DNA of 64,000 bases from the NCBI GenBank assembly GCA_029717555.1, contig JAMDHS010000012.1, positions 62,001-126,000 on the forward strand. Direction: 5' to 3'. The notes beneath the pieces are model-generated. The model made no database searches. It saw only the letters and a program-made list of their open reading frames with translations, and was not told the DNA's origin. The DNA comes from Peribolospora baueri (lineage: Eukaryota). Positions within the stretch are counted from its first letter, which is position 1; each line of letters begins with the position of its first letter. The translations under genes were made by a program, and so were the position numbers. This document shows positions 11,303 through 64,000 of this stretch, piece by piece.

Positions 11303-11353
11303 GTCAGTCAGTCAGTCAGTCAGTCAGTCAGTCAGTCAGTCAGTCAGTCAGTC
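11303..11353. repeat. (GTCA)12 tetranucleotide microsatellite
   Basis: Perfect GTCA tandem run 11303-11350 plus a partial unit. Confidence 0.95.
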
Positions 11354-17584: not shown

Positions 17585-19817
17585 TCATCCCCCACCATCG
17601 TCGACAGCCCCGCCATAAATGATCCTGGTGACGACGAACGCGGCCGATACACACATCGCGTAGAGGGGCGAGGCGAAGTAGCAGTACATGAGCTGAACCC
17701 AAAAAAGTGGAGTTGGGATGGTCAGTGCGTTCGTTGGAGAGATGCCCTCTGGAGGGAGCTAAATTTCGGTCAGTGGGCTCACCAGACGAGTGATGGTAGC
17801 ATCCTCTTCCTCTGAGACATGAGCGAGTGACGCGACCTGGAAAGACAAAAGTACGAGATGGAAACACGAGACCATGAACGGCCGGCTGCTTATTAGGCTA
17901 GAGACATCGCAGTTGAGATGGTGGGAACATACCGCCGCGAGTGTGATGGCCGGGGGGCCAGCTGGTGCAATGGAGAGCACAAAATCGAGCGCTGGATCGC
18001 GGCGGAAGAGGCGAGGGGAGAGGTGGCGCAGCGTCCAGACCGAGCCGATAGAAAGTGCGGACATGAGGAAGAAGCGGCAGGCGATGAGGATCGTCACCGT
18101 GGTCGCGGAGATGCTAGCGGAGCTGCATCCGTTCCAAATCAAAAAAAAAAAGGTGAGGGGAGGTTAAGATGAATTGAGGCGTGGATAAAGTAAACATTCG
18201 ACGTTTCACGCACGTTTCGCGGGAAAGCTTGCCACCAAGCACGAACGCCTGTGTGGCACTGAACAACATGCCAATACTCTCTATACTGTCCGTCACTGTC
18301 GACCTGAGCGGAGCATCGGGCTCGACAAAGAGTTGGCGAAGAGGCGGTACCAAGCCGAAGAGGATGGCGAGCAAGCCGGCAAGTAAAGGAGGATTGAGAT
18401 GACGTTCGAAAAAGCTCTTCACTGCTTGCCATCTGTGGGCCCAACCTGCTGGAGAGGAACGTGGGCCGGGGGATGCCTGCCCTGAGGGGAGCCGCAAAGG
18501 GAGGGACATGGGCGACGTGGGCGGTGTTAAGGGGCTCCACAGATCGGTTACAAGCCTGCCTAGGTCTGTCGTCGACCTTGACACGGAGTGCCACGGGGTG
18601 GGCACAACGAGAGGGGTGCCATGGCTCAGCATCTCGGACTCTCCGCCCGGTGGCAACGGCTCATATTGATCAAGCGGCAGCCTGGCAAAGTCGTCCTCAG
18701 ACAAGGGGCTCCGTGATGATAATTGTCCAGAAATACTTGCGGCGTCGGTATAGGAATGAGAGCGCTGGAGAAGAGGCGATTCTTCATTCACCACTAGCCT
18801 CGAGGTTGGCGGTATGACTGGCGGGGACGGGTGTTGGCTATCGGGTCGTTGGGTCGTCGGGAGCGCTGGCGTGCCGCGCCGGGATGAGCGATGGCTCACG
18901 GACCGTCGGCCGGTCATGAGGTGAGGTCCAATGGCGAATCTAACCTCTCGAGAAGAGGGACGTCGGTGTCAAAGCTCAAGAAGTCACCCGCCCTGTTGGG
19001 TCCCCGAACGAAGGCGAGACTAGAAACTGGCGTTGAGGTGAGGTTTCGAACTCACTTGAAAATGTTCTGCACCAAAGAATTGATCAAGATGTATGTTCTG
19101 GTCCGTGTCAAAACGGCATCCACCGTGTCGTCGGGACCACAACGGAGAACGTCTAACTTGCCCATCTTGGACAGAGACTGGACTAAGAGAATCGGCAGGG
19201 CGGTAGACTGGTAGATATGCGAGGGCGAGGGCGATCTATTCAGCCTTATCAACCCACCACTTCCGTCTTGGACCCAACAAAGAAAGGCACAGCTCACATT
19301 ATTGAACACGAGTGCGATCGGTAGCCATGCGGGCATGCCTGCCCATCTGCGCAAGGCAAGGCCGAGGCACATGGGCACGCTCATGTAAAAGATGCAGAAC
19401 GCTGGGATGATCCAGTATGACATGAGGTTTGACGGCGTCACCTGTTCTGCGATCTCTGAGAACAGCAGCGCAGGCAGGTAGATCGAGGCGCATAGGGCAT
19501 TGATGTTCTGCGATGCGGGCGGGCGGATGACGGGACAGGCATGTGGAGTAGGTCCAGACATCAGAAGAGAGAGAAACGACGAAACACGCGCGCTCACCCG
19601 CTCTCCTTCGGCCGTCAGCCAGTTGCGTTTCCGAGCGATGAAGCCATACAGCATGACCAGCAGGGCCGAAATCGAAGCCTGAAGGGGACGACGAACAAGC
19701 GAACACCCAGGTCAGCAAACACGAACTAGGTTATTTTTTTTAACCGAGCGCCCTCCCGCAAAAGACGCTCACGCCCGCCGAAGCTCGCACAGTTCCGAAT
19801 ACCGTCTTCTTGTCCAT
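17585..19817 (-). CDS. Auxin efflux carrier / PILS-like membrane transport protein, multi-exon
   Basis: Spliced product MDKKTVFGTVRASAG-ASISALLVMLYGFIAR..INALCASIYLPALLFSEI..ALVFNN-STALPILLVQSL..YILINSLVQNIFKFAIGP, a Ser/Pro loop, LNPPLLAGLLAILFGLVPPL, FVLGGKL, GPPAITLAA, and last exon LMYCYFASPLYAMCVSAAFVVTRIIYG..TGA. Confidence 0.8.
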
Positions 19818-20570: not shown

Positions 20571-23500
20571 TCATGATCGGCGGACAGACTTGGCCTGTTT
20601 GACAAGCAACTCCTTGGCGGCCAACACAGCCTGCCGGGACCCGCGAACGAGGATGAGACCGGTCGAGTTGCGGGGCACCTCCACCTCTGCGCCCGATTCG
20701 GCTTGTACGCTCGACAGACCTGCCCCTCCGCGGCCGATGATCCTCGGAATGGCCGAGCGTTCGACGATCAGCTTACCCGTGCAGCTCGCTCCCTCGGCGC
20801 GCTTCATCGCGCTCTCGATTCGTTTTCGCGCCCCTTCCACGCCTTCCCGGTCTCGGCCCGTGAGCGTCCACTCGATGACGGTCTGATCGCCCTCCGCCGC
20901 CGCCGACGGCTCGTCCTCCTCTTCCAACTCCCAGGACATGTCGTCCTCATCGCCTCGCTCCTCCTCATCCGCGTCGATACGGGCGGCGGTGGCGGACACT
21001 TCATTCGCGCCGCTCCCGTTTGCCGTCGTCGCCTTTTTCTTCTCCGGCTTGGGCACCTTGGGATGATCGACGTTGACTTGGTGCTCGATGCGGAGCGTGC
21101 GGAACAGCAGCGGCGTGCCAACCTTGTGGTGAAGGGAGACGGGCATGGAGAGGGTGTCCGAGGCGGACGGGTGAGACTCGGCCACATCTGCGGCCGCCTT
21201 CTTGGCGTTTTCGAGCGCGCCGAGGATCTTCACGACGCTCTTCGGGTCCACGTTCGCCAGCTCGTCCGCGTTGGTAGGCTCGCCGGCCGACTCGTAGTCT
21301 CGCCAGGTGGGGAGGAAGAGCCGCACCTCGTGTTTGGCCTGAAGCTCCTGGAACCGGGAGCCACCGCGGCCGACGAGGGCGCGCTGCTGCGAAGGGGCGA
21401 CGACGATGCCGTAGACGACGCGCTCGGAGAGGGCTTTGGCGGCCGCCTCCAGCTCGTCCTTGATCTTGGTGGCCAATTCGCGAGGGCCGCGGACGACGAC
21501 TCTGTCCATCTCCTTATCGCCTCGTCGCGGGAAGAGGACGAGCTGAGAGGAAGCGCGGGCGTCGGAGGGACCGCCAGCCTTGACGACAAGGTCCCGAATA
21601 GCCGAACCTCCGGCACCGATGAGGGTACGGTGGTGGGCAGGGTCGATGGTGATGACGAACGAGGCCTCGCCGTCGACCTCCTTAGCAATGGCCACGATCT
21701 TGTCCTTGGCCGCCGCGATGGCCTTCTTGGTTCCGCGCAGCTTGATGGTCGTCACGCCGGCCTTGTCGCCGTCGCGGTCAACGTCGATCTGCGCCTCGGT
21801 CTCCTCGCGGATCTGATTGATGTTCGCGCCGCCCTTGCCCATGATCCGGGCCACGCTCTTTGTGCTCACGGGCACCTCAACCACGTTGTTGTGCTCCTTC
21901 TCATACTCCAGCAGCTCCATCAGCTCAGCCTTGGCGCCCGCCACGCCCTTCTTCCCGCCCTTGATCACCACTTCGTCCGCCTTCTGAGCCGAACCACCAC
22001 CGGCGCCAGCACTGCTGGCGTCCCCGTTGGCGCTGCGGTCCTTGGGAAAGTTAATCCGGACGGAGTAAGTCTCCTGCAGCCTCGTGACGTACTTGCCGCC
22101 AGAGCCGATCATGCTCGCATGAAGGTGAGCGGGGATATTAACCGTCGCCGTCGTCTCGTCGGCCAGGCGCTCGACCTGCGTTTGGATGCGCCTCTGCGCC
22201 TCCTGGACGGCCTCTTTGCGGCCCGTCAGCGTCACCTTGGTCTTGGCCGCGCTCGCTTTCTTTTTGGACGCCGCGCTGGCGCCGGTGCCAGCAGGCTTGC
22301 CTCCGCGGACGTCTTCGGCAGGCTCACTGAAATCAACGCGGACGCCGAGCTCGTTACGCAGCTTGGTGACCGTGGCACCGCCCTTGCCGACGAGGTGGGG
22401 CACGTGAGACGCGTCGATGGAGAGCTCGGCGACGTGACCGTTGACGATGGCGTCTTGCTCCGCCTCGTCTGCGATGCGCCGGATCTCCTTGGCCACGCGC
22501 TCGACCTCTATGCTTGGCCCGCGAATCACCACCTCATCCTCTCCAACCGGCTTGGCGCCCTTGGGAGGGGCGGGCGAGCCGGCCTTGGGCCGGCCGACCT
22601 TGATGGAGACGAGGCGCTCCTCTCCGATGAGCGCGTTGAGCGTCGTACCGTTGGGGCCGATGATGTGTCGGTGGTGCTTGGCGTGCACGGTCAGCGTCTC
22701 GGTGCGAATGTCGGCGACGTCCTTGGCGAGTTCGAGGAGCTCCTGTCGGACGCCGTTAAGAATCTCTTGCACCTTGGCGTCCCGCGCCTTGCGGTCGTTC
22801 GGCAGCTGAGACGTCACGGCCGGGCTGGCGAGGACGAGGAGGACGTCGTCGCGGTCCTCGCCCTCGGAAGGGAAGACAATGTCGACGCCGGTGCTCTCAA
22901 ACTTTTTGAGGTTCTGCCCCTTGCGACCGATGAGGAAGCGGTGCAGGAGCGACTCGATCTCGACGGTGGAGACGAACGTAGGCGGGACGGACTTGACGAG
23001 GGCCATGATATCCCCTCGGACCTTGGACACCTCGGCGTGGTCCGCACCGACGATCTCAATCACGATCTGGCCCAACGTCTCGATGGCCGCCGGCCGAGGC
23101 GGGTAGACCTGGACGCCCTGGACGCGAGGAAGCTTGCCGTTGCGGACGAGCCAGCGGAGAAGATTCTTTCCGTACGAAAGCGGGTCGTAGGTGCCGTAAG
23201 CGGAGCGGTGAGCAGAGGTGAGATCGACGGTCTCCACCTGCATCTTGTTCGCCTTCTCCATGACCGCCTGGAGACCGGTGGGCAGGCTCGACTGGGGCCC
23301 GCGGAGGGTGACCGAGTCGGAAGGGTCGTCGATGGGAGCGAGCTCGATCGAGCAGCCGGTGGCCGCCAAGACGTCGTTGGCACCGTCTCCGACGAGGAAG
23401 CGATGCTGTCTCTTCGGGCAGCTGATGGTGAGCGTTCGCAGAGTGCGCTTCAGCTCATCGTGCAGGGCGTCAATGGCCTCGACGACCTTGCCGACGGCGT

Positions 23501-24814
23501 CCCTGTCTCCGGAGACGACGATGGCGAGATCCTTCTCCCTCCTTTGTTTGTCCTCTTCGCCTTCCTCCTCTCCACCGGGAGCGGGATGGCTCAAGAACGC
23601 GGCGCGAGGTGGGACGCGGACGCTGACGACGCCCTGGCCCTCCTCCTGCTCGAGCCTGGCGGCGTTGGCGCCCTTGGGACCGGCGATGAAGGGGTAGTAC
23701 TCGTGACCGATGTGGGTGAGGCGGGTCGTGATCTTGCTCGTGCGCTCGTTGACGATGGCCTGGATGAGCGACTGGGCTTCCTTGGCGTGGATCTCGTCGC
23801 CTTCGATGGTGATCGCGATCTGTGCCTCGTCCTCGAGTAGGTCGTCCGACGGGGCTGCTGCTGCCGGCTTGGCCTCCTCGGCGGGGTCGCGGGGCGGGAT
23901 GTGAATCCGGACGCCGGTCTGGTCAATGATCTGCTTGAGGTTGCGACCTGGTCCGAGCGCAGGCGATTGGAAAGGGAACGAAATTCAGCGTGGGCGCGCG
24001 CGCTTCACGTGGGGCGGTGGATCGGATCGGATAAGGAACGGCGACAACGATCTCCTCGCCTACACACCTTTAGAACCGATGATGTATGCACGAAGCGATG
24101 CGGGTACGTTGAGCGAGAGGGTGACCTGTTGGAGATGAGGAACGAATAGCGGCACGTTAGAAAAGCTCTGCCACCGAAAAGCTTCGCAAACACTGACGTA
24201 GCAGTAGCGGCACTCACGTTCCTGGCGAGCTGGACCTGGAGCTCCTTCTTGGCCTTTTTGACGTCGGCCTCGTTGGCGCCCTTGATGACAAAGGTGGTGG
24301 AGCCGGTCTTGCGGGTCGTGCTCGCCTCGACGTGGGCCTTGGTGCGCTGCATGACCCTCTGCATGACGGCGCCGAGGCGGGGCAGGGCGTCTTCTGGAAT
24401 GGCGACGGTGAGCGTCTCGGAGTGGGATGCGCGCTGGATCACCGGTGTGGGCGAGCTCCAAGCGGGGGCGGCGGCGGGGGCTGCATGGCCGTTGGCGTGG
24501 CCGGCGGCAGGGGTGGAACGACCGGAGGCGGAGGCGAAGGTCGGCTTGGACTTGGCTCCCCACTTGGCGGGAGTGGCGGGAGCGGCGGCGGCGGCGAGAG
24601 AGGGGAAGGCGGCCTCGGAGGAGACGTCGAGAGGGGCGGCTGCTTCGGCGTTCCTGCGAGTGGACGAGGGGGCGTGACGGGGTTCGACGTCGTCGTCCTT
24701 GAGAGCCGGGAACGGATCCTCCATAGGCGCCTGGGCTTGGGCTTGGGCGGCGGAGGAGGAGGGAGCGCCTTGGTCGTGAAGACGGGCGAGGTCGGCAGCA
24801 GAGAGGGTTGCCAT
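20571..24814 (-). CDS. SCP160: Vigilin/Scp160 multi-KH-domain RNA-binding protein (3 exons)
   Basis: Exons 24814-24218, 24125-24068 and 23947-20571. Many KH GxxG loops (IIGSKG, FIAGPKG, LIGRKG, IIGPNG, LVGKGG, MIGSGG, IMGKGG, LIGAGG, LVGRGG, IIGRGG). N-terminal 'SEAAFPSL' motif. Confidence 0.92.
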
Positions 24815-26716: not shown

Positions 26717-29700
26717 ATGCCCGCGAGCAACGACGTCGCCGTCGCTGCCAAGCTGGTTGCTGAAGGCGGGGCGAGCTCGGCCGCGGAGGCCCGTACCAAC
26801 GGTCACGCTCTCCCTCGGCTCGAGGGGCAGCAGCAGATCAAGGCCAACGGCTCTTCCTTGGTACCTCCCTCTCCCACGTCCGACCTGTCCGCTCACTCTC
26901 CCATCTCAGCCAGCCTTGCGGTGACGGTCCCCACCCCAGCCTTACAAACATCCCAACCCCCATCAGCGACTCCCTCCTCCCCCACGACCGAAATCTCCCC
27001 CGCGGACGCCGACGCCGACGAGGAAGAGCAGGAACAGGAACTCGACGATCCGCCGGGCAGCGAGCAGGAACACGAACACGACGATCCGCCGAGCAGCTCG
27101 GAGGAGGAGGACGCGGCGGCCAAGCCGGACGACCTCGACGCCGATGGCGACTTCGAGCTCGCTGATGAGCCACAGCTTGGACGGGGAAAAGTGGACGAGG
27201 ACGAGGACCAGGACGAGGATGCAGAAGAAGAGGCGGACACCGACGATAAGGGCGCCCGCCTGCCCGCCGGACCGAGGCCATCCGGAGGGGCGCCGCCGAC
27301 GACGAAGAAGACAAAGTTGAAAAAACGCGGCTTTGCAGATGCAGAGGCTGATCCCGCTTTGTATGGCTTGAGGCGGTCGGTGAGTCGCCAGCCCGTGGCC
27401 TTTTTCTTCTTTTTTTTTTATCCCTTCGTCTCTTCTTTTTTTGTCTTTTTTGATTTCTCCTTTCGCTCGGCCTCTTTTCTTCTTTTTTTGTCTTTTTGGT
27501 TTCTCCTTTCGCTTGGCCTCTTTTCTTCTTTTTTTTTTTGTCTTTTTTGGTTTCTCCTTTCGCTTGGCCTCTTTTCTTTTCTTTTTCTTTTTCTTTTTTA
27601 GTCTTTTTGATTTCTTCGTTCGCATGGCCTCTTTTCTTCTTTTTTTTTAATTGTCCTTTTGCCCTTCCTCTCTCGCCTCTTTTCTTTTTTTTGTCTTTTT
27701 TGTTTTCTCCGGACGTTTCGGCGGTCGAGGAACCGATGCACGGGTGCTGACGACCGGGCTTCTTTCTCGTCCTCGCTCCTCGGTGCAGGGACGTGAGCGA
27801 GCAAAACCTCAGGTGAGTCCACCGATCGCTCTCAAGCGCTCGTAACGCCCGGACGCTGAACGAGGCGCATACATTCCTATCTTGTCCTTCACCATCGCTC
27901 GTAGGTATACACCGGCATGGAGACCTCGGACGACGACGATGATGATGAGATCCGCGGCTATGCGCCCAGCAAGCCGTCCAAAAAGGGGAAAGCCAAGGGT
28001 GAGCACGTCGATGGAAGGTGGCCGTACGTACATACGTTTTACCGTCTTGTCTGACGTGGTCCGCCTCTCCTCCTCGCCACAAAGACACCTCCAACGGCAC
28101 CTTTCCCTCTCGTTCCCTCGCTACGCCCGGCTCTTCCGAATCCGACGAGGACTACGGCGCACGCTCTAAAAAGGCCGGCATGGGCCGCTCCCGCAAGCGC
28201 TCCCGACTCTATTCCCCTGGCGCCACCGCCATCCCCGCTGTCTCATCGGGCGCCGGCGTCGGCGCGGCCGGCGCGGGACCAGCGTCCGCGTCCGGCCACC
28301 TCGGAGGCGAGTTTGCGGACGTGACGCGAATCTCTGCGAGGAACGGAAAGCGGATTCCGAACTATAATGAGGAAAGCATGGCGCTCGACTTGAGCGACGA
28401 GGAGGACGAGGAGTATTATCCTGCGCAGGTTCTGGTTCAAGAGGGTGAGCGAGCGGTCGAGCGTCGTCTTTCTCCGCATGGTCCCGATCGCTCACCTGCG
28501 TCCTGGACGCTATCCCTCTCGTTCGCCCGCCTTTTTCGTTTTTTGTCTCGCAGAAGAGACGGACGTCATAGACGGCGTGTTCGGTCACGAGCGCGACGAG
28601 GAGCACTGTGAGTCGAGTCGGCCTGGCCTTGCCGCCCGAGGACGATTCGGAAAGCTGGAAGGAGTCGCTGACATCTTCGACCTTTGATTCCCCTCGGCGT
28701 CATCCAGTGGACGATCCAGAAGACATTCCGACGGTCAACCTCCGTTTCCTGATCAAGTGGAAGGACTACTCTCATCTCCACAACACGATGGAGCTCTACG
28801 AGTTCCTCAAGCGCTTTAAAGGCTTCAAGCGCGTCGAGAATTATATCCGACAGGTCTGGCAGCCGCAGAATGCCATCCTCAAGGACCCCACAACGAGCAG
28901 GGAAGATCTCGAGGCACTGGAGATCGACAAGGAGAGGCAGAAAGAGGTCCTCGAGAGCTTCCAGACCGTCGAGCGCATCGTCGCCCAGCGCGACGCGCCC
29001 GCGAACAAGGACGTGCCGTACCCGCACCTGAGCTACTTTGTCAAGTGGAAGGGCCTTTGGTATGCGGAGTGCACATGGGAGGTGAATGGCTGTCTCGTAA
29101 CGCTCGCCTTGCGTATCCTACACGTCACTCACTCTTCTCGTTCGCCTTCCGTGTCCCACACGTCACTCACTCGTCTCCTTATCGCCTCGCGTAATCGTCT
29201 GACCGTCTGCCAGTCTCACGATGACATCAAGAAGATCGCTCCGAACGCCATCGAGAGCTATCTCAAGCGCGCCGCTTCGCCCATGGTCCCTGCCAACTCT
29301 ACCAATTACGGAAGGGAGAGACCGGCGTACCAGCGCATGACCGAACAGCCCGAGTACATGAAGGTCGGAGGCACACTCAAGGACTTTCAGGTCACCGGCC
29401 TCAACTGGCTCGCTTATAATTGGAGCCGGTTCGCTAATGGGATTTTGGCCGACGAGGTGAGGTTTCGCTTTTCGTTTTGAAGCTACCGCCGGACTGCCAA
29501 GGGATGGGATGGGATGGTCCGAGTCACTGATGGACTTTCTCGCCGTTTCGCCTCTGTCCAGATGGGTCTCGGCAAGACGGTGCAGACAGTCTGCTTCCTC
29601 TCCTGGCTTTGTCACACGGCCCGTCAGTACGGACCGCACCTCGTCGTCGTGCCTCTGTCCACCATCCCCGCCTGGCAGACCACCTTTGAGACCTGGGCGC

Positions 29701-32700
29701 CGGATCTCAACGTGGTGACGTACATGGGTAACAGCAAGAGCCGTCAGATCATCCGCGACTTTGAGTTCGGCCCGCTCAAGAGGCTCCGGTTCAACGTCCT
29801 CATCACCACGTACGAGTTCATCTTGAAGGACAAAGCGGACCTCGGGCAGATCAAGTGGCAGTTCATGGCCGTCGACGAAGTGAGCGACGAAACGCGGCGG
29901 TTCTTTCGCCTACTCCTGCGCTTCATGCTCAATGGACTGCCCTCTTCGTTTTCTCCCGCTTGTTCTCTAGGCCCACCGGCTCAAGAACTCGGAGGCTCAG
30001 TTGTACGACTGTTTGAGCGGCTTCCACACCTCGGGAAAGCTCCTCATCACCGGCACTCCTCTTCAGAACACGGTAAAAGGTGAGTGGTGGGCCGTCTGAT
30101 AGGATTGACCGCGGCGCGCTAGTTATTTGTAGCCTTTCTACGCGGACTGAACGTACTTTTGTCGGTCGTCTCCGTTTCTTTCATAGAACTTCTCGCCCTG
30201 CTCCACTTCCTCCGACCGGAACAGTTCCAACTCACGAGCGATTTTGACATGAACGACTTTGATCAAGCAAAGATCAAGGATTTGCACGACAAGCTGGAGA
30301 ACGTGATGATCCGAAGGTTGAAGCGTGACGTGATCAAGGAGCTGCCCACCAAATCGGAGAGGATCCTGCGCGTGGAGATGAGCGCACTGCAGAGGCAGAT
30401 GTACAAGGCCATCTTGACGAAGAACTTTAGCTTGCTCAACGGCACCAACACGGCTCAGTTTAGCTTGCTTAACATTGCCATCGAGCTCAAGAAGTGAGTT
30501 GCGGAGCCCCGGGGTGAGGGTCGGGGTGGAGGGATGCCTTCTTTGGGGGCCGGGGGCCCGGGGGGGGGGGGGGGGGGATGCCTCCTTTCGAACCGTTTTT
30601 ATGGTGCGCCGCGCGTCGGTCTGGCTCGGCGGGCTGACTTTGTCATCGATTGCTTTTACTCGCCTTCTCGTCGTCGCTCAGAGCGTCCAATCATCCCGTG
30701 AGTAGATGGTTCCACGCTGGCTGGCGTTCATGCGTTCGTAGCTTCTCTCGGTTGACGCAACAAAAATTGCCGTCGTTTGCTTCGCAACAGTACCTCTTCA
30801 ATGGCGCCGAGAAAAAGACGGACAGTCGAGAGGATACGCTCCGTGGGCTCGTCATGCATTCTGGCAAGATGGTCCTACTCGACAAGTTGCTGGTTAGGTT
30901 GAAGCAGGATGGCCACAGGGTCCTCATCTTCAGCCAAGTGAGTTTCGAAGGCGAAGCGGGGGGAGCACCTGGATTGTGAGACACTTACTGGCTTGCTCGG
31001 ACGGCGCTGTTTTGTCTCCTTTGTGCAGATGGTGCGCATGTTGGACATCCTCTCCGACTACTTGTCTCTGCGAGGCTATATCTTCCAGCGGCTCGATGGC
31101 ACGATCTCCTCGGAGATGCGTCGCAAGGCGATCGAGCATTTCAACGCTCCCGGTTCGCCGGACTTTGCCTTCCTCCTCTCCACTCGTGCCGGCGGGCTCG
31201 GCATCAACCTTGAGACGGCCGACACGGTCATCATCTTCGACAGTGATTGGAACCCACAGAACGACTTGCAGGCCATGGCGCGTGCTCATCGACTCAATTC
31301 CAAATTCCACGTCAGCGTCTTCCGCTTCCTCACCAAGGACACGGTCGAGGAGGACGTCCTGGAGCGCGCTATGAGGAAGATGGTCCTCGAGGCTGCCATC
31401 ATCTCCCAAATGGACACGTGCGTAGTCTTCGTCGAGGAGGAGCGAACGCGGATGTACGCTCCGGATGCTTACTCTTCTTCTTCTCGCATTTTGGACAGAT
31501 CTGGTGCTACGTTTTCCCCCAAGGCGTCGACCGCCAACAAGGCCAACAATTTCAGCAAGGAAGAGCTGAGTGCCATCCTCAAGTTCGGTGCGCAGAACAT
31601 GTTCAAACACGATGACAACGACGAACAGCAGAAAAAGCTGGACGCTATGGACCTTGACGACATCCTCAGCCGCGCCGAAGCGCACGAGACGCAGGGCGAT
31701 CCGACTGGCGCCTCCGCTGGCGGTCAAGGCTTCCTCGAGTCGTTCGCCGCTGTCCAGGACTTCAAAGCGGACGATATGAACTGGGAAGACATCATTCCCG
31801 TGGAGGAGAGGCAGAAGATAGAGGAAGAGGAGCAGCAGAAGGCCGCGGCCGAGCAGGCCGAGCTTCAAAGCCGTCGACGGGCCGCCGCACAGGTCGCGCC
31901 GGGCACGTACGAAGGCGCTGACGGCCCCGATCCCGGTGCGTCAAAGTCTTCGGACGGAGGCGAAGGCAACAAGAAGCGGCAGACGGGTCCACGTAAATCG
32001 GCGGCGCAGCGCTCGATGGAGATGAAGGAGAGGGACGTGCGCGTCCTCGTCCGCGGCATTCAGCGGTGGGGCGACCCACAGTATCGGTATGAGCAGACGG
32101 TCACCGAGGGTAGGCTGCAGGACAAGAACCGGGCCGTCATTCTAGAAATAGCCGAGGAACTCTTGAACATTTGCGAAAAGGCCATCGACGACCATGCGGC
32201 GTCTATGAAAGCAAAGCAGGAGGCAGGCGAGGAAATCTCGTCTGCGCTCAAGCAGAAGGCCGTCCTTGTCGACTATCGCAAGGTCGGAAACATTAACGCG
32301 GAGACGGTGAGTTTTTACATTCTACCGATTTTCTCCTCTCCCCCGCTTCTCTTTCCCCTGCATCTCGACTGGCCCGGCTCGGTGTCCATCGTCTCGGTTC
32401 TGACGACCGTCATCGCGTTATATATCGTGTTCGCGCAGTTTGTGTCTCGGTATAGAGACCTGCGCTTGCTTGCGGAGACTCTGGACAAGGTACCGGATAT
32501 TTTGGACTGGAACATCCCCGTCGAGCATCTCAAGGCGACCTTGAACTGGACCGGCGGATGGGGACCTCAGGAAGATTCTAAACTTCTCGTCGGCATCTTC
32601 AAGTACGGTTTCGGCGGCTGGGAGGCGATCCAGGCTGATCCGGACCTCGGTATGGAAGGCAAATTCTTCCTCGAGGACAACAAGGCGAAGAACGAGGAGG

Positions 32701-33539
32701 GCAAGGCCAAGGCGATCCCCAACGCCATCCACCTCGTTCGCCGGGGCGACTATCTCCTCAAGGTGCTTCGCGAGTACGACGAGAACCTGAAAAACTATCA
32801 GCGAACCGTGCAGCAGCAGGTTCAGACCGGGTCGTCGTCGTCGTCGTCCAAGAAGTCGGCCAAAGGTCGCGCGAGCGACTCTCCTGCGCCCTCCACCGCG
32901 AGCGCCAAGGGTGCCAAAGGGACGAGTGCGGAGGAGACGGGTCGGAAACGGCGAAGGACGCCGACGTTCACAGATTCTTCGGACGAGAAGAGCGCTTATT
33001 CGAGCATGGACGAGGTGAGGACTCCGATCGCGATCGCCCGCAGTGGATGGTGAGAGGAGGGCCAGGGAGGCTATGGCGCTGATGTTGCCTGTCTTATCGC
33101 GCAGACCGAGTGCAAAGAGCTCCTGCGACCAGTCAAGAAGGAGCTCAAACAGCTCAAACAGGGTACCGATCACCTTCCCCGGGCCGAGAAGGTGCAAGTG
33201 CTCAAGAGCTGCCTGTCCGCCATCGGCGCGCGTATCGACTATGTCGTCAAGAACGAGGTGGACGCGAAGTCGGCGAAGGAGAAGCAAAAGTGGCGGAAAC
33301 ATCTTTGGGTCTTTTGTTCCTTCTTCTGGCCCAGAAAGGTGAGCAGGCCACCTCCGCCCGGGTGCCGCACTCGTTCTCACCCTGGTGTGCCAAGCCCAAA
33401 ATCTGACGACCATCCGTGTTCTTCACGCCAGGTACAATGGTCGAAGCTCGAAAGCATCTTCCAGAAGCTCGTCGGGAACGGGGCGTCGACGGCGATGGAG
33501 AGCGGCAGTCCTCCGCGCAAGGCGCCGCGATTGACTTAG
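26717..33539 (+). CDS. CHD1: Chromodomain-helicase-DNA-binding chromatin remodeller Chd1 (Hrp1/Hrp3 type), multi-exon
   Basis: Tandem chromodomains ([30 protein letters not shown]), SNF2 motifs ([70 protein letters not shown]), SANT/SLIDE-like [22 protein letters not shown] and C-terminal [14 protein letters not shown]. Confidence 0.95.
27430..27710. repeat. T-rich degenerate minisatellite (unit about 48-60 nt, 4-5 copies) inside CHD1 intron 1
   Basis: Repeated core gtctttttggtttctcctttcgcttggcctcttttct separated by T runs of variable length. Confidence 0.85.
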
Positions 33540-34313: not shown

Positions 34314-35414
34314 CTACACGCTCATCTTCATTTCGATCTTTCCGTGCGGTTTGTAACCGTCGACGACAAAGTCCTCGTACCGGTACGCGTCGACGCCGCC
34401 AGCGCTCTCCACTTCCTCCCTACTCCTAGCGATGCGCACCTTGGGAAACGGCTTGGGCTCGCGCTCGAGCTGCACGCGCAGAGCATCGACATGATCGAGG
34501 TAGACATGCGCGTCACCGGCCTGAAGGATGAATTCGTGTGGCTCAGTGTCGGTGAGGTGGGCGATGAGATGGGTGAGCAGGGCGTAGGAGGCAATGTTGA
34601 ATGGCACGCCGAGGCCTAGGTCGCAGGAGCGTTGGTACATGAGGCAAGACAGCCGCGGTCGTTGAGGGGAAGAGATGGAGGACGAGGAGGAGGGTTGAGG
34701 AAGTGAGACGAAGAATTGACAGAACATGTGGCACGGCGGGAGAGCCATCTGGGGTATATCTGCGTGTGAGACGGAAAGAAATGACGCCCGGTCACCATCG
34801 GCTCACACAAGAGATGAAGCTCTGACGGCTCGGACCACAGAGACTATCCCACCTGCAGGGTTCCACGCGCTGAGAATGATCCTTCGATCCGTCGGGTTGT
34901 GTTTGATCTTGTGAATCACCTCGTTGAGCTGGTCGACGCCCTGGCCGGTGTAGTCGGCGTCGCAATCGGTGTAAGTAGCGCCAAAGTGCCTCCATTGGAA
35001 ACCGTATACCGGGCCCAAATCGCCCTCTCTGCGATGTCCAAGGCCCTGCTTCTCCAAAAATTCCTTCGAACCGTTGCCATCCCAGATGTGTACGCCCTTT
35101 GCGGAGAGCAGCTTGGAGTCCGTGCGGCCCTGGACGAACCAGAGGAGCTCCTCAAGCACACCCCGGAGGAAGACGCGTTTCGTGGTAAGCAGCGGCAAGG
35201 TGCCGTCCGCTAGAGAAAAGCGTAGTGAAGGGGGGGCGAAGACAGCGAGCGTGCCGGTGCCCGTTCTGTCGCCTCGGCGTTCGCCTTCGTCCATGACTCT
35301 TCGGATGAGGTCAAGGTACTGGTACTCCTCGTGCCGGCGGCCGAGAGCATTCTCGCTGTGGCCATTTGAGGCCGTCTGACACGCTGGGCCAGTGGAAAGC
35401 TCGCCGTCTGCCAT
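34314..35414 (-). CDS. CDC21: Thymidylate synthase (2 exons)
   Basis: [65 protein letters not shown] (catalytic Cys), [21 protein letters not shown] and C-terminal KIEMKMSV. Confidence 0.97.
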
Positions 35415-35464
35415 GATTGCTGCCGGAGGAGGATGTGATGGTGGATGGTTGCGATGTCCCGTCG

Positions 35465-35560
35465 AGCGCGCGTGAGCGCGTCCGATTCATTTACGCGTGC
35501 ATGTGGCCTTCGTGGCCCTCCGCACGTGACGTTCCTTTGTGCGCGCCAGGGGGACGCGAA
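35465..35560. promoter_or_regulatory. MCB-like elements (ACGCGT at 35493-35498, GCGCGT, ACGCGAA) and a GTCACGTG E-box in the divergent thymidylate synthase / NimA-kinase promoter
   Basis: Motifs read directly. MCB control of the yeast thymidylate synthase gene is established; function here is inferred. Confidence 0.5.
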
Positions 35561-39480: not shown

Positions 39481-41314
39481 ATGTCAGAACCAGCGGCAGC
39501 GACACCTGCGCCCCTGTTGCTGTACGTCTGGGGCGAGAAGCATGGTCTTCCATCGTGAGTGTCGGGCACTGTTTGCGAGACTAGCTTCCAGAACATGCAG
39601 GGACTCTTACGAGGCTATGGGCAGAGGCTTCGTAGGAAACTAACTCCCTAACGGTCTTGTTTTTTTCTTTTTTTTTTATCTTCTATCGGTCTTGTGTCCT
39701 GTAACTCTTTGTTCCCTTATTCCTCGTCTTAATCTGCACCGCTTTTGCTACCTTACGGACCCACAGCGTCGACCCAAGCTGCTTGGCTGCTGCGTCCCTT
39801 CTGCAAGCGACCGTGCCAGATCAATTTGCCATCGTAGAATGTAATGACCCTGACATCTCTCCCAGTGGTATGTATAATTATTTTCTTCTGGTGAATACTG
39901 TTGTCACGGACCTCTCGGAAGAGGTCAACTCTTATAACTTCGTCTTGTCTTCCCGAGCAGGGCAGCTCCCTTTCCTCCGCGATGGGCCCACGATCTTCTG
40001 CGGTTTTCATGAAATCGCTGCTCACTTGAACAAGAGGCACCTCTCTGACGATTCGGAAGCCTTGGGTGACAGGAGACTGACATCACGTCAGTTGGGCGAT
40101 TTAGCTGCCTACACGGCTTTCGTTGAGGATGGCTTGGCGGATTTGGTTGTGAGTGCAAGACCAGTATCCCTCCGCTGCCTTTTAACTATGCGGTTCGCAT
40201 GCCTTGTGAAATTTTGACGCAAGGCCTTCGGTATGCTCTTTCTTCATCAGGCACACACGCTCTTTTCTCTTCCCCAAAACTGGCTCCTCTTCACCAGATC
40301 CCTCTACGCGTCCCTTCTACCAATACCTTCTCGGTACTACGTTCCTTCTCGCTTGCGCTCCTCCATAAAGACACGCCTGATCACTAGCGGGATATGGGGT
40401 CTTGGTGGAGAGGCAGAAAAGGAAGTGGAGGAAGAGAGGAAGCGAAGAGAACAAGGGTGGAGGCTCATGGTGGAGAAGGGAAAAGGTGTCATGGGCCGAG
40501 ACGAGGTAGAAAAGGCGAGGAAAGAGTTTGAGAAGCAGAAGGTAAGCGGTGGCGGGAGAGCCCGGTTATCTACTGAATGGCCCTATCTTCGTCTCGTCCA
40601 AGGATCTTATTTTCGGTCTCCACTATCTCTTTTCGAAACGTCTCTGCCGGGCGTCCTGTACAGGTCGCCACCCTGGCCCGGGAGACTTTCTCAGTGTTCT
40701 CTTCTGCGCTGTCCAAGTCAAGCACGCCTTACTTCTTCTCCTCTGCACGAGCGACGACGCTGGACATCCTTCTCTTTTCCTACCTCGCACCTGTTCTCTT
40801 CTTCCCCCTGCCCGCTCCTGTCCTCTCTGACCTCCTCCGCTCCTCATTTCCGGACCTCGTCGCCCACTCCGAGCACCTCCGTCGCGAGCTGTGGCCTCCA
40901 CGGGACGAGACGATCGCCACGCGGAGTTGGCCTCGCAAGCTCGATTCGGAGCCGACCACTATGTTGGGTCTCGTGAAGAGCCTGGGAGCCCTCCCGGGCG
41001 CGCTGTGGGGAGCCCTCCCGGCCAATCCCCTCTCGCCCACCTCGCGGCCGAAGCGGAGACGGGAGGGTGCGGGCGGATACGACAAAGGCGGCGAGGGGGA
41101 AGGCAAACAGTTCAGCGAGGCGGAGAAGAAGCTCAGGAGACGAAGGTTGTGGTGGATCGTCTTGGCGAGCGTAGGCAGCGTTGCTTATCTTTTCGCTAGT
41201 GGTATCTTGTCGGTCGAAGTAGGACGGGAGGAAGAAGACGATGATTATCAAATGGTGGAGGAGGACGAGGAAGAGGACGAGGACGATGAGATGGAGGAGG
41301 ACGAGGAGGATTGA
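39481..41314 (+). CDS. SAM37: Mitochondrial SAM complex subunit Sam37 / metaxin, multi-exon
   Basis: Spliced N-terminus MSEPAAATPAPLLLYVWGEKHGLPS-VDPSCLAA..CNDPDISPSG-QLPFL, GST-like region YFFSSARATTLDILLFSYL..FPDLVAH and C-terminal TM segment WWIVLASVGSVAYLFASGIL. Confidence 0.82.
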
Positions 41315-46160: not shown

Positions 46161-47839
46161 TCAAGTAGGCTGCACCTCCGGCCCAGCGCTGACGCCTGTG
46201 ATGGCAGGTATGACGAGGTCCCGAAAGACGCGCAGCCTAGCGTTCCTTGTGACGAACAAATTCCTCGAAGGCGTGGCCAACGGCAGGGGGCGGAAGTTGC
46301 GCGCTGCTTTGAGGATCTCATCCAGTTCCGCGTCGACGTCCAGTTCCGCGTCGTCTGCTCCGTCGTCGTCGCTCCCTCCACCACCGCCTTTGCCCGTGCC
46401 CCCGCCTCCTGGCCCACCTCCCCCGCCACCGCCTCCACCACCACCACCACCAGCTCCAGAAGTCGCCTGAGCCGCTTTTTTGTCCTTCTTCTTCGGCTTC
46501 TTCTCACCCGCAAGTCCGCCCTGCATTCCGCCGGCCATGTAGTAAGACGATTTATGTGCGTGCTTCTCGTAGATGTGCGGATTGTGCACCTTCTGCCATT
46601 GGAGGTAGAGCCAGTCGTACGGCGCCGAGCGGCCGACGACAGAACGCTTTGCGCTCATCGAGTGGGACTTGCAGGTCAGAGAGCGCGAGCAGGGAAGGCC
46701 CTTGTCGTTGATTACTCCGCACTGAGTGTTGAGATCAACGGCGCCTGGCAAGGGAAAAGACGAGGCATGCAAGTCAGGAAATCGCTCGCCCCCAAAGGGC
46801 TCCTTGAACAGAAAAGCCATCGACCACCCGGCCGCGCGCTCACCCTTAAGCTTCCTCCCGCCCTTCTTCTTCTCCTTCTTGGTCTCCTCCTCTCCGCCCT
46901 CCTTCCCATCTCCCTTCTTGCGCTTCTTCCCCTTCTTACGGGGCGATCCCTCCATTGTGCTCGATTCGGATGCTACCGTACGAAGCGGAGGGGTGCAGAC
47001 GAAGACATCGTGCAGGAGACGGGTAACAGATTAAAGAGAGAGCGACGGGTGAATGAAATGCGCAGTCTTCAAATTCACTCGGCTCTGAAGCAGGCACCAT
47101 CCATGTACAACTTGGAGAGAACTCTTGCCATGCCACGGCATGAGAACGAGAGGTCCGCGCTCCGAACTCACCATCCGATCCCCGTCGCCTCCTCTCCTCA
47201 AGAGATGGTCCCTCCCTAATCCTACGGCAGTTCTCTGTAACGCCGGCCGTGGAAATTGCAAAAGGGGGGTGAGGAACAGACAGAGAACGCAAAGAAGAGG
47301 GCTTCATATCAGCCTTGTCATCCGGTCGCCGAGCGCTCGGCTCATCCGGTGGATTGGCTGGCGGATCCTGGTCGACTTTCGGCCCCCCTGGGTCCATACG
47401 TCGATCCGAGAAGGTGGACGATCGGCGAGGTGAAACGAAGCGCTGAGCGCACGCACCGAGATGCTTGCCCAGAGCGATGGCGAGCACGGGTCTGCTGCAG
47501 TCCTTGCATTCCACTACCGTCAACTCGTCCTCGAGCGGCCACATGCCGAAGGTGAGGAGGTCGTCCGGCTCGATCGCGTTGGCGAAGTAGTCTGGTTGGG
47601 AGGGGGAGACTACGTCGACAGCGGGAGAGAGACGAGTACGACGGGAAGGGGCGCGGACCGGGGATATCGTATGAGAAACGGGTGTTGGATGGACGGCGGG
47701 CATGAAGAAAGGAACGACGTACAATAAGCTTGTGCGAGGCAGCGTTCCACAATGGCGACTGCGCACTCCCAAGCTCACCTGGATTCCTCTTTCCAACTTC
47801 CTCGATCTCAGCCCAGGAAAATCGTGTGGGAGCCTCCAT
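46161..47839 (-). CDS. SGF73: SAGA deubiquitination-module subunit Sgf73 / ataxin-7 (SCA7 domain), multi-exon; start uncertain (47839 or 47703)
   Basis: N-terminal zinc finger [34 protein letters not shown] and SCA7 domain [42 protein letters not shown]. Confidence 0.9.
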
Positions 47840-49359: not shown

Positions 49360-52300
49360 ATGGACGTCGATGCGGAGCTCAGCCCCGGTAAGGTCAAGCG
49401 CGAGGACTCTTCGGATGGCGAGCCCCTCGCCATCAAGTCTAAGGTCAACGGCACTTCTGGCGTCAAGCGGAACCAAGCCATCGCGAATGACAGTAGCGAT
49501 CTCAGCAGCGAGGACGATAAACCACTGGTGGGTTGAGTCGACGGACCCTGCTCTCGTCTGACCCGCCAATTCGTACTTCATTAGCGGCGCGTCTTCTGAC
49601 ACGTGTTGGATCGCTCGATTGTACTCCCCTTCTCCCTCAATCCCCTCCCGTCCGTTCGACCCAGGCGAAACGCGTGAAATCCAACGGAGCGCAGGCCAGG
49701 TCGGCTCCCGTCAAGCCTAAGGTGGAGAGCGATTCCGATTCTGATTCGGAAGATGACAAGCCGCTGGCAAGGAAATCCTCGGCCAGGACGGCCAAGACCA
49801 CGCCTGTTCCCAACACCACCACCACCGCCGATGCCCGTCCAAAGCGCGAGAGCGCTGTCGCGGCATCGAAGCTCAAGATGAAGGAGGAGGACTCTTCCGC
49901 CTCGGACTCTGAGGACGATATGCCACTCAAGAAGAGAGCCAAATCCGTGTCATCGACGCCTGCTAAGAAAGGTGGCCTGTCCAGAGCTACCTCGACGGCC
50001 TCGACGCCTCGACTTAAAGAGACATCGACGTCGGCCGAGGCAGCGGGCGAGGATGAGGACGAGCAGGGCGGTGAGGGCGTGGACGCTGAGAAGTGGAAGC
50101 AGATGACTGAGGGAGACGGCTCGATCCGCTGGACGAGGCTCGAGCACAACGGCGTCACTTTCCCGCCTCCTTATCAACCCTTGCCGAAGAACGTCAAGAT
50201 GAAGTACGACGGTGAGCGATCCGCCCCCGGAAGGAGCAGGGCGAGGCCGAACTGGCTTCTCTAACATTTCCTGTCCTCCGTGCGCGCATCTTGTTGATCC
50301 TACGTACTTTGATCAGGCAAGCCACTGGAGCTCCCTCCGGAATCCGAAGAGGTGGCATACTTTTATGCGCAGATGCTCGAGACACCGCACGTCAACCCCG
50401 ATGAAGTGACGAGGTCGAAGCTCAAGGACCCAGACCTGTTCAAAAAGAACTTTTTCAACGACTTCAAGGATATCCTTCGAAAGCATCCTCCGGTAGGTCT
50501 CATAGTCGTATGGAGACGGTTGACTCGCGCTCAGGAGATGGGCGACTGCTCGCAGGTCTTGTCTGATGCTCAATGCTTCCGTCTCCTCTCCCTCACACCG
50601 CACATACAGCGGGACGGCACGAAGGTGACCTCTCTCGAGAAATGCGACTTTCGTCCGATGTGGGAGTACTGGGAGGAGGAAAAGGCCAAGAAGAAGAGCA
50701 TGACAGCGGCGCAGAAGAAGGCGCTCAAGCAGGCGAAGGACGAAATAGAGAAGCCGTACACACATTGCCTCATGGATGGCAAGGAGGAGAAGGTTGGCAA
50801 CTTTCGCCTCGAGCCTCCGAGTCTCTTTCGTGGGCGCGGCGATCACCCTAAGAGGGGCAAGGTCAAGGTGAGCCTGGAGGGCAGGCCGGCTCTCGACTCA
50901 TCTCTGCTCTTCTCGACCGCATTGGTTGAATCCTCATGCTTGGTTTCGCCCATTCCCCAGCAACGCATCATGCCGGAGCAGATTACGATCAATATAGGCA
51001 GAGAGACAAAGGTGCCTGAACCTCCAGCTGGTCACCGATGGGCGAGCGTGATCCACAATCAGACAGTCACCTGGTTGGCGCATTGGAAGGAGAACATCAA
51101 CGGCAGTGAGTGCTCATCCCCCTTGCCGTTGGCAGAGGTGACGTCAGGTGACTTGCACGATCACGGCGCAACATGCATATTCATTTGCATTTGCGCGGTC
51201 ATATCCAACAGACGCAAAGTATGTCTTCCTAGCACCTACGAGCACCATCAAGGCCAGGAGTGATGAGGCCAAGTATGAGAAGGCTCGCGAGCTCAAGGTC
51301 AGTTTGCTTTGAATGGATGTGCATCGTACAGAGATGAATGGCTTCGCTGACACGCCTTCCGTCGGCCGTGCTCGATCGCTACTTGTCACAGAAACACATT
51401 GAGCGGATCCGCCGAGATTACACTAACAATCTCTCAAACAAGATCATGAAGGACCGTCAGCTGGCGACGGCTGTCTACTTCATCGATCAGTACGCCCTGC
51501 GTGCGGGTAACGAGAAGGGCGAGGACGAGGCGGACACGGTGGGATGCTGCTCCTTGAAGCGGGAGCATCTGACGCTTTACCCAGGAGCCGGACCAGATGG
51601 GAAGGATCAAATCAAGCTCGAGTTCTTGGGCAAGGACTCAATCCGATACGTCAACACCATCACCGTCGAGAAGCGCATATTTAAGAACCTCGTACACTTC
51701 CTGCAGACGACGGACGAGAAGGGACGGAAAGGTCAGAAGAGCGAGGGAGATCTCATCTTCGACCGCGTCTCGGTGAGTGGCTTGGGTTCGCCGGCCTTCA
51801 TTATTTCGTCTCGTCCGAGGGTACGGGTTGCAAACGTTGTCTGAATACTTTCAATCCGATCTCCCTCCATACCTTTTCTTGTAGACCACGGACGTGAACA
51901 AGTGGCTCCAGTCCCACATGGCCGGCCTGACCGCAAAGGTGTTCCGTACCTACAATGCCTCGGTGACGATGGAGAGAGAGCTCGGAGCGCTCACTCAGGC
52001 GGATGCGACCGAGGCCGAGAAAGTGCTGGCATATAACCGCGCCAACCGACGGGTGGCCATTCTTTGGTGAGCGCCGCAGAGCATGGGGACGCCGGATCGA
52101 TTTCCTTCCTTTTAATTGAAAACGACTCACTCTTGGATTAACACTTCCATCGATCTCGTGTAGTAACCACCAGCGGACAGTCGCGGCATCGCATGCACAG
52201 GGCATGCAGAAGATGACGGACAGGGTGAGCAGGCGTTGGCAAGCTAGTCGTCACTTTCCTTTTTCTCGCACAGGCACCGATGCGCTTGCTCGTGTCGGTA

Positions 52301-53402
52301 TTGACGCGCTTCCTTCATCGCACCGCAGCTGCGCGCGCTGAAATACGAGCGCCGCAAGCTCCGACACCAACTGCACAAGCTGACGACGGATCAGAAGGAC
52401 GCCAAGGCGGACAACAAGCCCGAGTCGGGGGACAAGAAGCTGGTGAAGGACGCAGAGTCGGATCTGGATGACGAGTGGATCGCGCAGTACGAAGACAACC
52501 TTTACGAGCAGAAGACGGAGAAGTTGAAGGCCAAGTTTGAGAAGGATCAGGTACTCAAGGCGGAAGAGTGAGTTTTGGTTTCGCCGGTCGACGCCACTCG
52601 CTTTCCACTGCTCTGCCTTTCTGAGGCGGCGCAAAGACGGAGGCGGCGATCCCTTGTCAGCTTCGTTGATGCATGCGATACTGTCCCGTTGCCGACCTCG
52701 CAGTGATGACAAGAGGATGACGAAAGAGCAGCTCGACGAGAAGCTGGGAGCGCTCAAGGAGGAGTTCGCACGACTGAAGAAAGAGCGTGGCAAGACCAAG
52801 GCCGACGGAGGCGTGTCGGCGGCGAGCGTTAGGAAGAAGCTAGCGACCATGGATAAGAGGATCGAGAAGTTTAGGACGCAGATGTGAGTCCGCTGTGATC
52901 TCTTCACTTGCGGTGCCGCTCGCCGTTCACCACGTTGGACACTGTGGACGGACCGACCGTGTTAACCTAACCATGTCGCTACCGTGCGTATAGGACGGAC
53001 AAAGACGAGAACAAGGAGACATCGCTCGGAACGTCCAAGATGAACTACATCGTAAGTAGTTCCCTGCGGTTGTTGGCCTCCTCATTTCTACTGCCGAGGC
53101 GGTTCTCTGAGTACAAATAAATGGATTGATTGGTGAATGGTGTTATAGGACCCTCGAATCACGTTCGCTTGGTGCAAGAAATATGACGTCCCCATCTCGC
53201 GAGTGTTCGCCAAAACGCTCCAGGACAAATGTGCGTCCCTTCCGTCGCTTCTCAGCTGTCCTTTATGGGTGTCGCCTCGCCCTCGTGCTGCTCTTGCTGA
53301 ACTGAACTGAACTGGCTGCGGACCCTGTTTCGCTCCTCGTCGGTCCTCCCTCGTCCGCCAGTCGCTTGGGCCAAGGATGTGGACGAGGGTTACAAATTCT
53401 GA
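49360..53402 (+). CDS. TOP1: DNA topoisomerase I (type IB), multi-exon
   Basis: [85 protein letters not shown], and catalytic-Tyr motif [15 protein letters not shown] (split by an intron). Confidence 0.97.
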
Positions 53403-63676: not shown

Positions 63677-63811
63677 TCAAATGTAACCGAGACTCTTGTA
63701 GCTGAAACCCGAGGGAGCAAAGAGGGGGGGTTTAACAGGGACGGGTGAGCATGGAGAAACTCTGGCAAAAGCACGGCGGCTCCCGTCACTCACACAGCGT
63801 CGGAAATGTAA
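63677..63811 (-). promoter_or_regulatory. Arginine attenuator peptide (AAP) uORF, last two exons; first exon probably beyond the window end
   Basis: 18-nt exon 63811-63794 (CAG|T TAC ATT TCC GAC GCT GT|GTGAGT) plus exon 63701-63677 (CAG|C TAC AAG AGT CTC GGT TAC ATT TGA) read (D)YISDAVYKSLGYI*. This aligns with the AAP core DYLSDHLW/DYISDHIW and ends 78 nt before the CPA1 ATG. Confidence 0.85.
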
Positions 63812-63821
63812 CTGGTTAGAA

Positions 63822-63868
63822 GAGGAAGGAAAGGAAGACAAGGAAGGAAGGAAGGAAGGAAGGAAAGG
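63822..63868. repeat. (GGAA)n microsatellite forming the polypyrimidine tract of the uORF intron on the minus strand
   Basis: Run aggaaggaaggaaggaaggaaggaaagg. Confidence 0.8.
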
Positions 63869-64000
63869 ATGAGCGGTCCGTAGACTCGATGGGGGCCATG
63901 CTCTTCGATGATGATAAGGTCGTGCTCGCGGTCGCCGTGCTGGACACGGGGCACGCCGTTGCGCAAGGAGCGGGCAGGCTCGAGCGAGCCATGGGCGCGG

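Follow-up and report, generated by a model that had tools for sequence, protein, structure and literature searches.

A predicted arginine attenuator uORF, split by at least one intron, upstream of a basidiomycete CPA1 gene

Does the leader of this CPA1 gene encode an arginine attenuator peptide (AAP) that can only be read once its coding sequence has been joined from small exons? Among eukaryotic nascent peptides that sense a metabolite while still in the ribosome tunnel, the AAP is the textbook case, and comparative AAP papers, among them Hood 2007 and Spevak 2010, reportedly already describe introns in AAP coding regions as well as basidiomycete AAPs. In the accessible literature, we found no text on an intron inside an AAP upstream open reading frame (uORF). 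An earlier note on the DNA analyzed here (a stretch of 64,000 nucleotides, referred to as the window) had proposed that two tiny minus-strand exons, absent from the ORF track, join to an AAP-like peptide ahead of the carbamoyl-phosphate synthase small-subunit gene. We asked how far this proposal holds, how many introns divide the uORF, and which other readings of the leader have to be considered.

The gene downstream of the proposed uORF is as follows:

63598-62165, minus strand: CPA1/arg-2 orthologue, arginine-specific carbamoyl-phosphate synthase small subunit, 477 aa, single ORF without introns

Pfam assigned both expected parts of the protein, i.e., the carbamoyl-phosphate synthase small chain (PF00988, E 1.2e-42) and the class-I glutamine amidotransferase (PF00117, E 4.6e-43). 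The best 120 of 8000 scored candidates in a protein search were 62-72% identical to it, and those with a name were basidiomycete CPA1, all recognisable names belonging to Basidiomycota. The window's own CPA1 protein was not among the best 120 of the 8000 scored candidates, and a close sequenced relative of the source organism seems to be absent from these 120 matches. One of the 120 proteins (P0120, named Agaricus bisporus var. burnettii) starts with M-L-F-S-K-N-T-R-D-D-Y-L and continues as CPA1. This looks like a gene model in which exon 1 of a uORF was fused onto CPA1, a mis-annotation that would hide the uORF.

Upstream of CPA1, the following elements make up the proposed split uORF:

63811-63794, minus strand: exon 2, a micro-exon of 18 nt, preceded by ...ctaaccAG (AG at 63813-63812) and followed by GTGAGT (63793-63788); from the third base of an Asp codon, it reads through Y-I-S-D-A to the second base of a Val codon and holds the conserved peptide core
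63793-63702, minus strand: proposed intron 2, 92 nt, GTGAGT...CAG, containing an ATG at 63752
63701-63677, minus strand: exon 3 in the reading with the 92-nt intron, 25 nt, preceded by ...gggtttcAG (AG at 63703-63702); it holds the last base of the Val codon, Y-K-S-L-G-Y-I, and TGA (63679-63677)
63676-63599, minus strand: spacer of 78 nt that separates the CPA1 ATG from the uORF stop and holds no ATG itself

A coordinate-based join of exons 2 and 3 gave Y-I-S-D-A-V followed by Y-K-S-L-G-Y-I-stop, so that sequence and join agree on the two exons with AG/GT boundaries that the earlier note had drawn. Its observation that the pieces are missing from the ORF track was likewise correct, as the peptide is missing from every ATG-started ORF of the six-frame list. 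The same is true for the dependence of the Asp on an upstream exon ending in GA, since the first base of exon 2 is the last base of a split codon and completes it. In the spliced leader, the start codons of the uORF and of CPA1 are the only ATGs. The 9-mer GTTACATTT occurs twice on the minus strand, at the start of the micro-exon (63812-63804) and at the end of exon 3 (63687-63679), where it encodes G-Y-I-stop. We considered this repeat as a sign of duplication and dropped the idea, as the flanks could not be aligned; the recurrence is probably due to chance.

For comparison with outside DNA, one metagenome scan was performed with the CPA1 protein, yielding 65 loci. Fungal-type CPA1 was present in seven of them (L001-L007; 60-67% identity), and the 58 others (≤36% identity, bacterial-type) were left out. 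L007 starts inside CPA1 and has no upstream DNA, which leaves six loci; L004-L006 are near-identical, so that the six count as four lineages. These three loci differ in the uORF stop (TAA vs. TGA) and in one synonymous Leu codon, and we regard them as strain-level variants of one lineage. Scanning of the upstream regions revealed exactly one Y-[ILVM]-S-[DE] match per locus just before CPA1 (6/6). In each case it belongs to a uORF of 22 codons reading M-[LF]-F-T-x-x-T-R-D-D-Y-L-S-D-L-V-F-S-L-..-stop, which ends 10-25 nt before the CPA1 ATG. The stretch T-R-D-D-Y-L-S-D-L-V-F-S-L is invariant in the four lineages. Across these lineages, DNA differences are present in 18 of the 22 codon columns and protein differences in only 6 of the 22, and pairwise comparisons gave 7-13 synonymous and 1-6 non-synonymous codon differences. 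We read this as purifying selection on the peptide, not on the RNA. The window element is homologous to these uORFs: its micro-exon aligns codon for codon with the relatives' Y-L-S-D-L-V, and the Ser is conserved despite a switch between the TCN and AGY codon families (TCC vs. AGT/AGC). In three of the four lineages (all except L001), the Asp codon preceding the Tyr is interrupted after its second base by an intron of 49-55 nt.

The comparison also changes how the peptide core is to be judged. The earlier note had called it divergent on account of A-V-Y at the positions that read H-L/I-W in the ascomycete peptides that it quoted. The window does read A-V-Y; however, the divergence is not peculiar to it, as the relatives lack His and Trp as well and read L-V-F at these positions. 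We consider the loss of His and the replacement of Trp by another aromatic residue to be lineage-wide, with A-V-Y of the window as one more state and Leu/Val/Phe as an agaricomycete-wide AAP variant. No Pfam family was matched at E-values up to 10 by the complete 22-aa uORF of L001, and hence the basidiomycete form of the AAP appears to lie outside the curated Pfam model. Unspliced window frames of the uORF region likewise matched 0 Pfam families, and a PDB sequence search with the same 22-aa uORF of L001 returned 0 chains at E-values up to 10.

A likeness between short peptides may arise by chance, and we therefore examined 50,000 dinucleotide-preserving shuffles of the 402-nt leader. The motif Y-[ILV]-S-D occurred in any frame in 130 of the 50,000 shuffles. 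When the motif additionally had to follow an AG/Y split or an Asp codon and to be followed by x-[ILV], 2 of the 50,000 shuffles contained it. These 2 shuffles bear on the possibility that the likeness is accidental, with no uORF being translated, the CT-rich tract serving as a promoter element, and transcripts starting downstream. CT-rich tracts are often found upstream of fungal transcription starts, which this alternative draws on, and it is further compatible with the lack of a strong donor or a well-placed start codon within the window. Against it stand the rarity of core plus phase among the shuffles and the presence of the same motif before CPA1 in all six relatives, with an intron at the same codon phase; we give it hardly any credence. 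In the window, Y-I-S-D-A-V is contiguous (in exon 2), and the aromatic residue (Tyr, or Phe if only 34 nt are removed, see below) follows only after splicing. The pieces end 78 nt upstream of the gene with the PF00988 and PF00117 domains, a position just ahead of CPA1 as in 6/6 relatives. The claim of an AAP-type uORF ahead of CPA1 that is split by at least one intron was upheld by the homologous uORF in 6/6 relatives and the split Asp codon in three of four lineages. Judged from sequence comparison, we regard the split element as a real but divergent AAP uORF; as a control element, the AAP is of an ordinary, known kind.

To judge individual splice sites, introns of neighboring genes in the window were collected as a local reference. 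A first screen based on flanking open frames gave 198 rows and was discarded as too noisy in DNA of 59.5% GC. It was replaced by Pfam profile continuity, for which profile coordinates were mapped onto open-frame pieces (36, then 144 of 174; the Tom37 and KH regions were left out of the 144-piece mapping). Frame-compatible GT-AG pairs were enumerated at 11 junctions with a profile running between the pieces, and one pair per junction was then chosen by the author, who favored donors close to the consensus, acceptors of the YAG type, and profile numbering without a break. Shorter introns (51 nt in the thymidylate synthase gene and 53 nt in the CHD1-like gene) were rejected, as they broke profile continuity. 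The 11 resulting introns span 85-112 nt, with the donors GTGAGT (four), GTGAGC (three), GTAAGT (two), GTCAGT (one), and GTGGGA (one), and the acceptors CAG (six) and TAG (five). Genes recognized by Pfam elsewhere in the window are listed below:

29601-32798, plus strand: CHD1-type SNF2 helicase
34317-35486, minus strand: thymidylate synthase
39705-40730, plus strand: Tom37/metaxin-like protein
46491-46970, minus strand: SCA7-domain protein
23466-23945, minus strand: KH-domain protein
17762-19711, minus strand: Mem_trans-family transporter
15170-16200, plus strand: RRM plus Surp protein

A topoisomerase I gene at 49521-53298 (plus strand) has at least six introns of 94-112 nt, one of them with the unusual donor GTCAGT (51298), and the intronless CPA1 gene contrasts with this intron-rich neighbor. 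Regarding repeats, the window contains a perfect (GTCA) microsatellite at 11303-11353 (12.8 copies) and a T-rich tandem array at 27397-27648 (periods of 37-60 nt, 2-4 copies).

The first intron of the uORF is anchored by conservation. Its acceptor in the window (cAG/T TAC) lies in the same phase of the Asp codon as the intron of the relatives. Because the relatives' intron occupies the identical codon phase, there is strong evidence for intron 1 being a genuine, old intron and for an exon ahead of it that ends in GA. The following features are candidates for the missing 5' part:

63885-63812, minus strand: 3' end of intron 1, the acceptor being secure by its conserved position; taken as candidate intron 1a, it measures 74 nt, opens with the donor GTCTAC, carries a (CCTT)n tract, and has CTAAC 4 nt ahead of the AG
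63899-63886, minus strand: candidate exon 1a, an ATG (with A at -3 and G at +4) followed by A-P-I and, at the 3' end, by GA as the start of the Asp codon
63992-63990, minus strand: upstream ATG in the same frame as the ATG at 63899, giving, with exon 1a, a 49-residue peptide that ends in the attenuator
63999-63902, minus strand: alternative exon 1b, open to the window end and ending in ...I-I-I-E plus GA, with GCATGG following the GA (63903-63900)

The GA at 63887-63886 is the sole GA/GT in 63812-64000, and the in-frame ATG at 63899 would give a peptide of 18 residues. Exon 1a would provide only four residues before the Asp, with Ala where the relatives have Thr at Asp-3, and its strong Kozak context differs from the weak start contexts of the relatives. 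Its donor GTCTAC reached a PWM score of -2.6, compared to 4.2-9.9 for the verified donors, and intron 1a, which overlaps a tandem AGGA/CCTT tract at 63823-63865, would be shorter than all 11 verified introns; the narrow gap of 4 nt from its CTAAC to the AG also counts against this candidate. Exon 1b would use a GC donor (GCATGG at 63901), resulting in an intron of typical length (90 nt) and the junction ...I-I-I-E-D-Y. Its frame contains no ATG inside the window, so that the start would lie beyond 64000. The ATGs at 63899 and 63992 are in frame with the attenuator for exon 1a only; with exon 1b, the ATG at 63992 would open an out-of-frame uORF of 68 codons. No GT is present between 63896 and 63923, the donor zone for an intron of 85-112 nt, and the first exon is for this reason possibly located beyond 64000. 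In sum, exon 1a is a weak candidate, and the true first exon may lie outside the window.

The second intron is where the readings of this locus diverge. If it were retained, translation would end at an in-frame TGA (63792-63790) 6 residues after the Asp. The proposed intron fits the 11 local introns by its commonest donor GTGAGT, its length of 92 nt within 85-112 nt, and its CAG acceptor. By a rough PWM, its donor (9.9) is level with the top of the verified donors (4.2-9.9), and its acceptor (5.0) lies just below all 11 verified ones (5.6-13.5). Of the YAG acceptors located 60-130 nt from the donor, only the CAG at 63704-63702 leads to a peptide with a stop. Removal of the intron restores an aromatic residue at Asp+7, Lys next to it, Leu at +3, and a near-normal length: the stop comes 13 residues after the Asp, compared to 12 in the relatives. 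In 20,000 shuffles of the downstream 189 nt, an aromatic first residue with 5-8 residues to the stop was obtained 366 times, and with an additional Leu at +3 only 48 times. However, intron 2 is absent from the relatives (0/6). Two other readings of the same uORF were considered.

According to the first of these, the attenuator is decaying. Intron 1 would be spliced and the GTGAGT stretch kept, so that the peptide would end in ...D-Y-I-S-D-A-V-stop and no longer stall ribosomes in response to arginine, leaving a relic downstream and CPA1 under some other control. The in-frame TGA directly at the proposed donor fits such decay, as do the restriction of intron 2 to the window among the seven sequences, the weak first-exon candidates, and an F-S-M-L remnant 34 nt downstream that resembles a displaced ancestral C-terminus. 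The Y-I-S-D-x-V core and the conserved phase of the acceptor are intact, however, and the Ser has been preserved through a two-step codon change. Under decay, it would also be odd for GTGAGT without a mismatch, an ordinary intron length, and a CAG recovering the aromatic residue, Lys, Leu, and near-normal length to coincide (48/20,000). Moreover, a retained intron 2 would expose the ATG at 63752 as an extra uORF. We consider decay unlikely, although it deserves to be kept in mind.

The F-S-M-L stretch is also central to the other reading, in which the attenuator uORF is the same and only 34 nt (63793-63760) are removed, yielding ...D-A-V-F-S-M-L-T-R-P-C-stop:

63759-63733, minus strand: alternative C-terminus F-S-M-L-T-R-P-C-stop, stop at 63735-63733, acceptor gAG

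F-S-M-L agrees with F-S-L-L of the relatives, in which F-S-L is invariant and the next Leu usual, at three of four positions (Met for Leu) and is nearer to it than Y-K-S-L, and the ATG at 63752 would become an in-frame Met instead of a stray start. In that case, the 92-nt version would be coincidental or represent a second isoform. In a post hoc test on 20,000 shuffles, two acceptors that both provide an aromatic residue and a suitable length were found 21 times, and 2 times when each also had to give Leu at +3. On the other hand, all 11 verified introns are 85-112 nt long and end in CAG or TAG, with 0 GAG among them, no plausible branch site is found inside the 34 nt, and F, S, and L are readily encoded by a pyrimidine-rich intron interior. 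The stop would fall 14 residues after the Asp. The 34-nt excision is in our view quite improbable, and F-S-M-L may represent a displaced ancestral C-terminus, a second isoform, or a coincidence. The three-exon structure of the earlier note stands in part: donor, length, and YAG acceptor of intron 2 match the 11 local introns, whereas its absence from all six relatives, the low acceptor score, and the 34-nt rival speak against it. A second intron, and hence a uORF of three exons, is moderately supported by these sequence features.

As an overall reading, with odds slightly better than even, we favor an AAP uORF of a basidiomycete CPA1 that is encoded in pieces, namely an upstream exon, an 18-nt exon, a 92-nt intron, and a third exon. 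The upstream exon would contribute the start codon together with GA of the key Asp codon; Y-I-S-D-A-V would come from the 18-nt exon; and, with the 92-nt intron taken out, exon 3 would add Y-K-S-L-G-Y-I and the stop. The analysis itself shows the sequence, its splice-site anatomy, the homology to uORFs under purifying selection in the relatives, and the conserved position of intron 1. We infer the removal of the introns as drawn and the place of the start codon, and likewise every aspect of an arginine response. By homology, the nascent peptide would sit in the ribosome exit tunnel, and high arginine would arrest the ribosome at the uORF stop or close to it. Such an arrest would prevent ribosomes that scan the leader from reaching the CPA1 AUG, 78 nt further downstream, and would probably expose the CPA1 mRNA to nonsense-mediated decay (NMD).

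This scheme follows what is described for known systems. According to PMC11550727 and PMC7969011, the AAP acts in the exit tunnel, where high arginine causes stalling at the uORF stop, block of scanning to the CPA1 AUG, and NMD, while low arginine permits expression by leaky scanning past the AAP uORF. D12N, which alters the Asp directly ahead of the Tyr, abolishes arginine-dependent stalling (PMC7038982). In Cryptococcus, the CPA1 uORF is conserved and ribosome-occupied, with the main ORF translationally repressed and the mRNA NMD-sensitive (increased 5-fold in upf1-delta; PMC7049704). Similar behavior may be expected for the window uORF, a likeness drawn from described behavior and not from residues.

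In the window, as in N. crassa arg-2 and S. cerevisiae CPA1, the gene for this enzyme is closely preceded by a short uORF with a D-Y-[IL]-S-D core (for which the Asp needs the predicted upstream exon), an aliphatic residue at Asp+6 with an aromatic one at Asp+7, a basic residue next to the latter, and a stop about 12-13 residues past the Asp. Arginine-dependent ribosome arrest would be expected by analogy (PMC7038982, PMC11550727, and PMC7969011). In contrast to these peptides, the window has Ala for His and Tyr for Trp (relative to the quoted ascomycete peptides), its coding sequence is split by one conserved and probably a second intron, and the segment before the Asp may be short. For agaricomycete-type uORFs, we compared the metagenome loci L001-L006 (CPA1 60-67% identical to that of the window), the N-terminus of P0120, and a putative AAP uORF reported for Coprinopsis cinerea (PMC12230235). 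They share with the window their place in the leader of a basidiomycete CPA1, the intron that splits the Asp codon behind its second base, the replacement of His/Trp by an aliphatic residue plus Phe/Tyr, Val at Asp+6, and Leu 3 after the aromatic residue. Unlike the window, these relatives have 22 codons, the conserved N-terminal part M-[LF]-F-T-x-x-T-R-D, no second intron, Phe-Ser in place of Tyr-Lys, a spacer of 10-25 nt instead of 78 nt, and weak start contexts. Two putative peculiarities of the window are a lineage-specific second intron, which would set the core apart on an exon of 18 nt, and Ala/Tyr in place of His/Trp.

Placement of the sensor core on an 18-nt micro-exon raises a further idea, namely that splice choice sets the attenuator and CPA1 is gated by splicing as well as by arginine. 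Removal of 92 nt would give the Tyr-Lys C-terminus and removal of 34 nt the agaricomycete-like Phe-Ser one. The earlier note had suggested that intron retention or loss of the 18-nt exon could turn attenuation off. Among the computed isoforms, retention of intron 2 would truncate the peptide by the stop 6 residues after the Asp, retention of intron 1 would lead to an unrelated 27-residue peptide, and skipping of the micro-exon would delete the core in frame. We found no description of a coupling between splicing and arginine for the AAP in searchable literature text, and we regard this idea as very improbable. Should the second intron turn out to be real and variable, it would provide a splicing input to a translational switch.

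Regarding its wider meaning, the predicted uORF indicates that the AAP persists far from the model fungi, in a lineage with no CPA1 above 72% identity among the best 120 proteins. Annotation based on ORFs is blind to split uORFs of this kind, and the P0120 model, with exon 1 of the uORF fused to CPA1, illustrates the consequence. Together, the window and its agaricomycete-type relatives form a natural series with Leu or Ala in place of His and Phe or Tyr in place of Trp, which could guide mutational and structural work on the tunnel contacts for arginine sensing.
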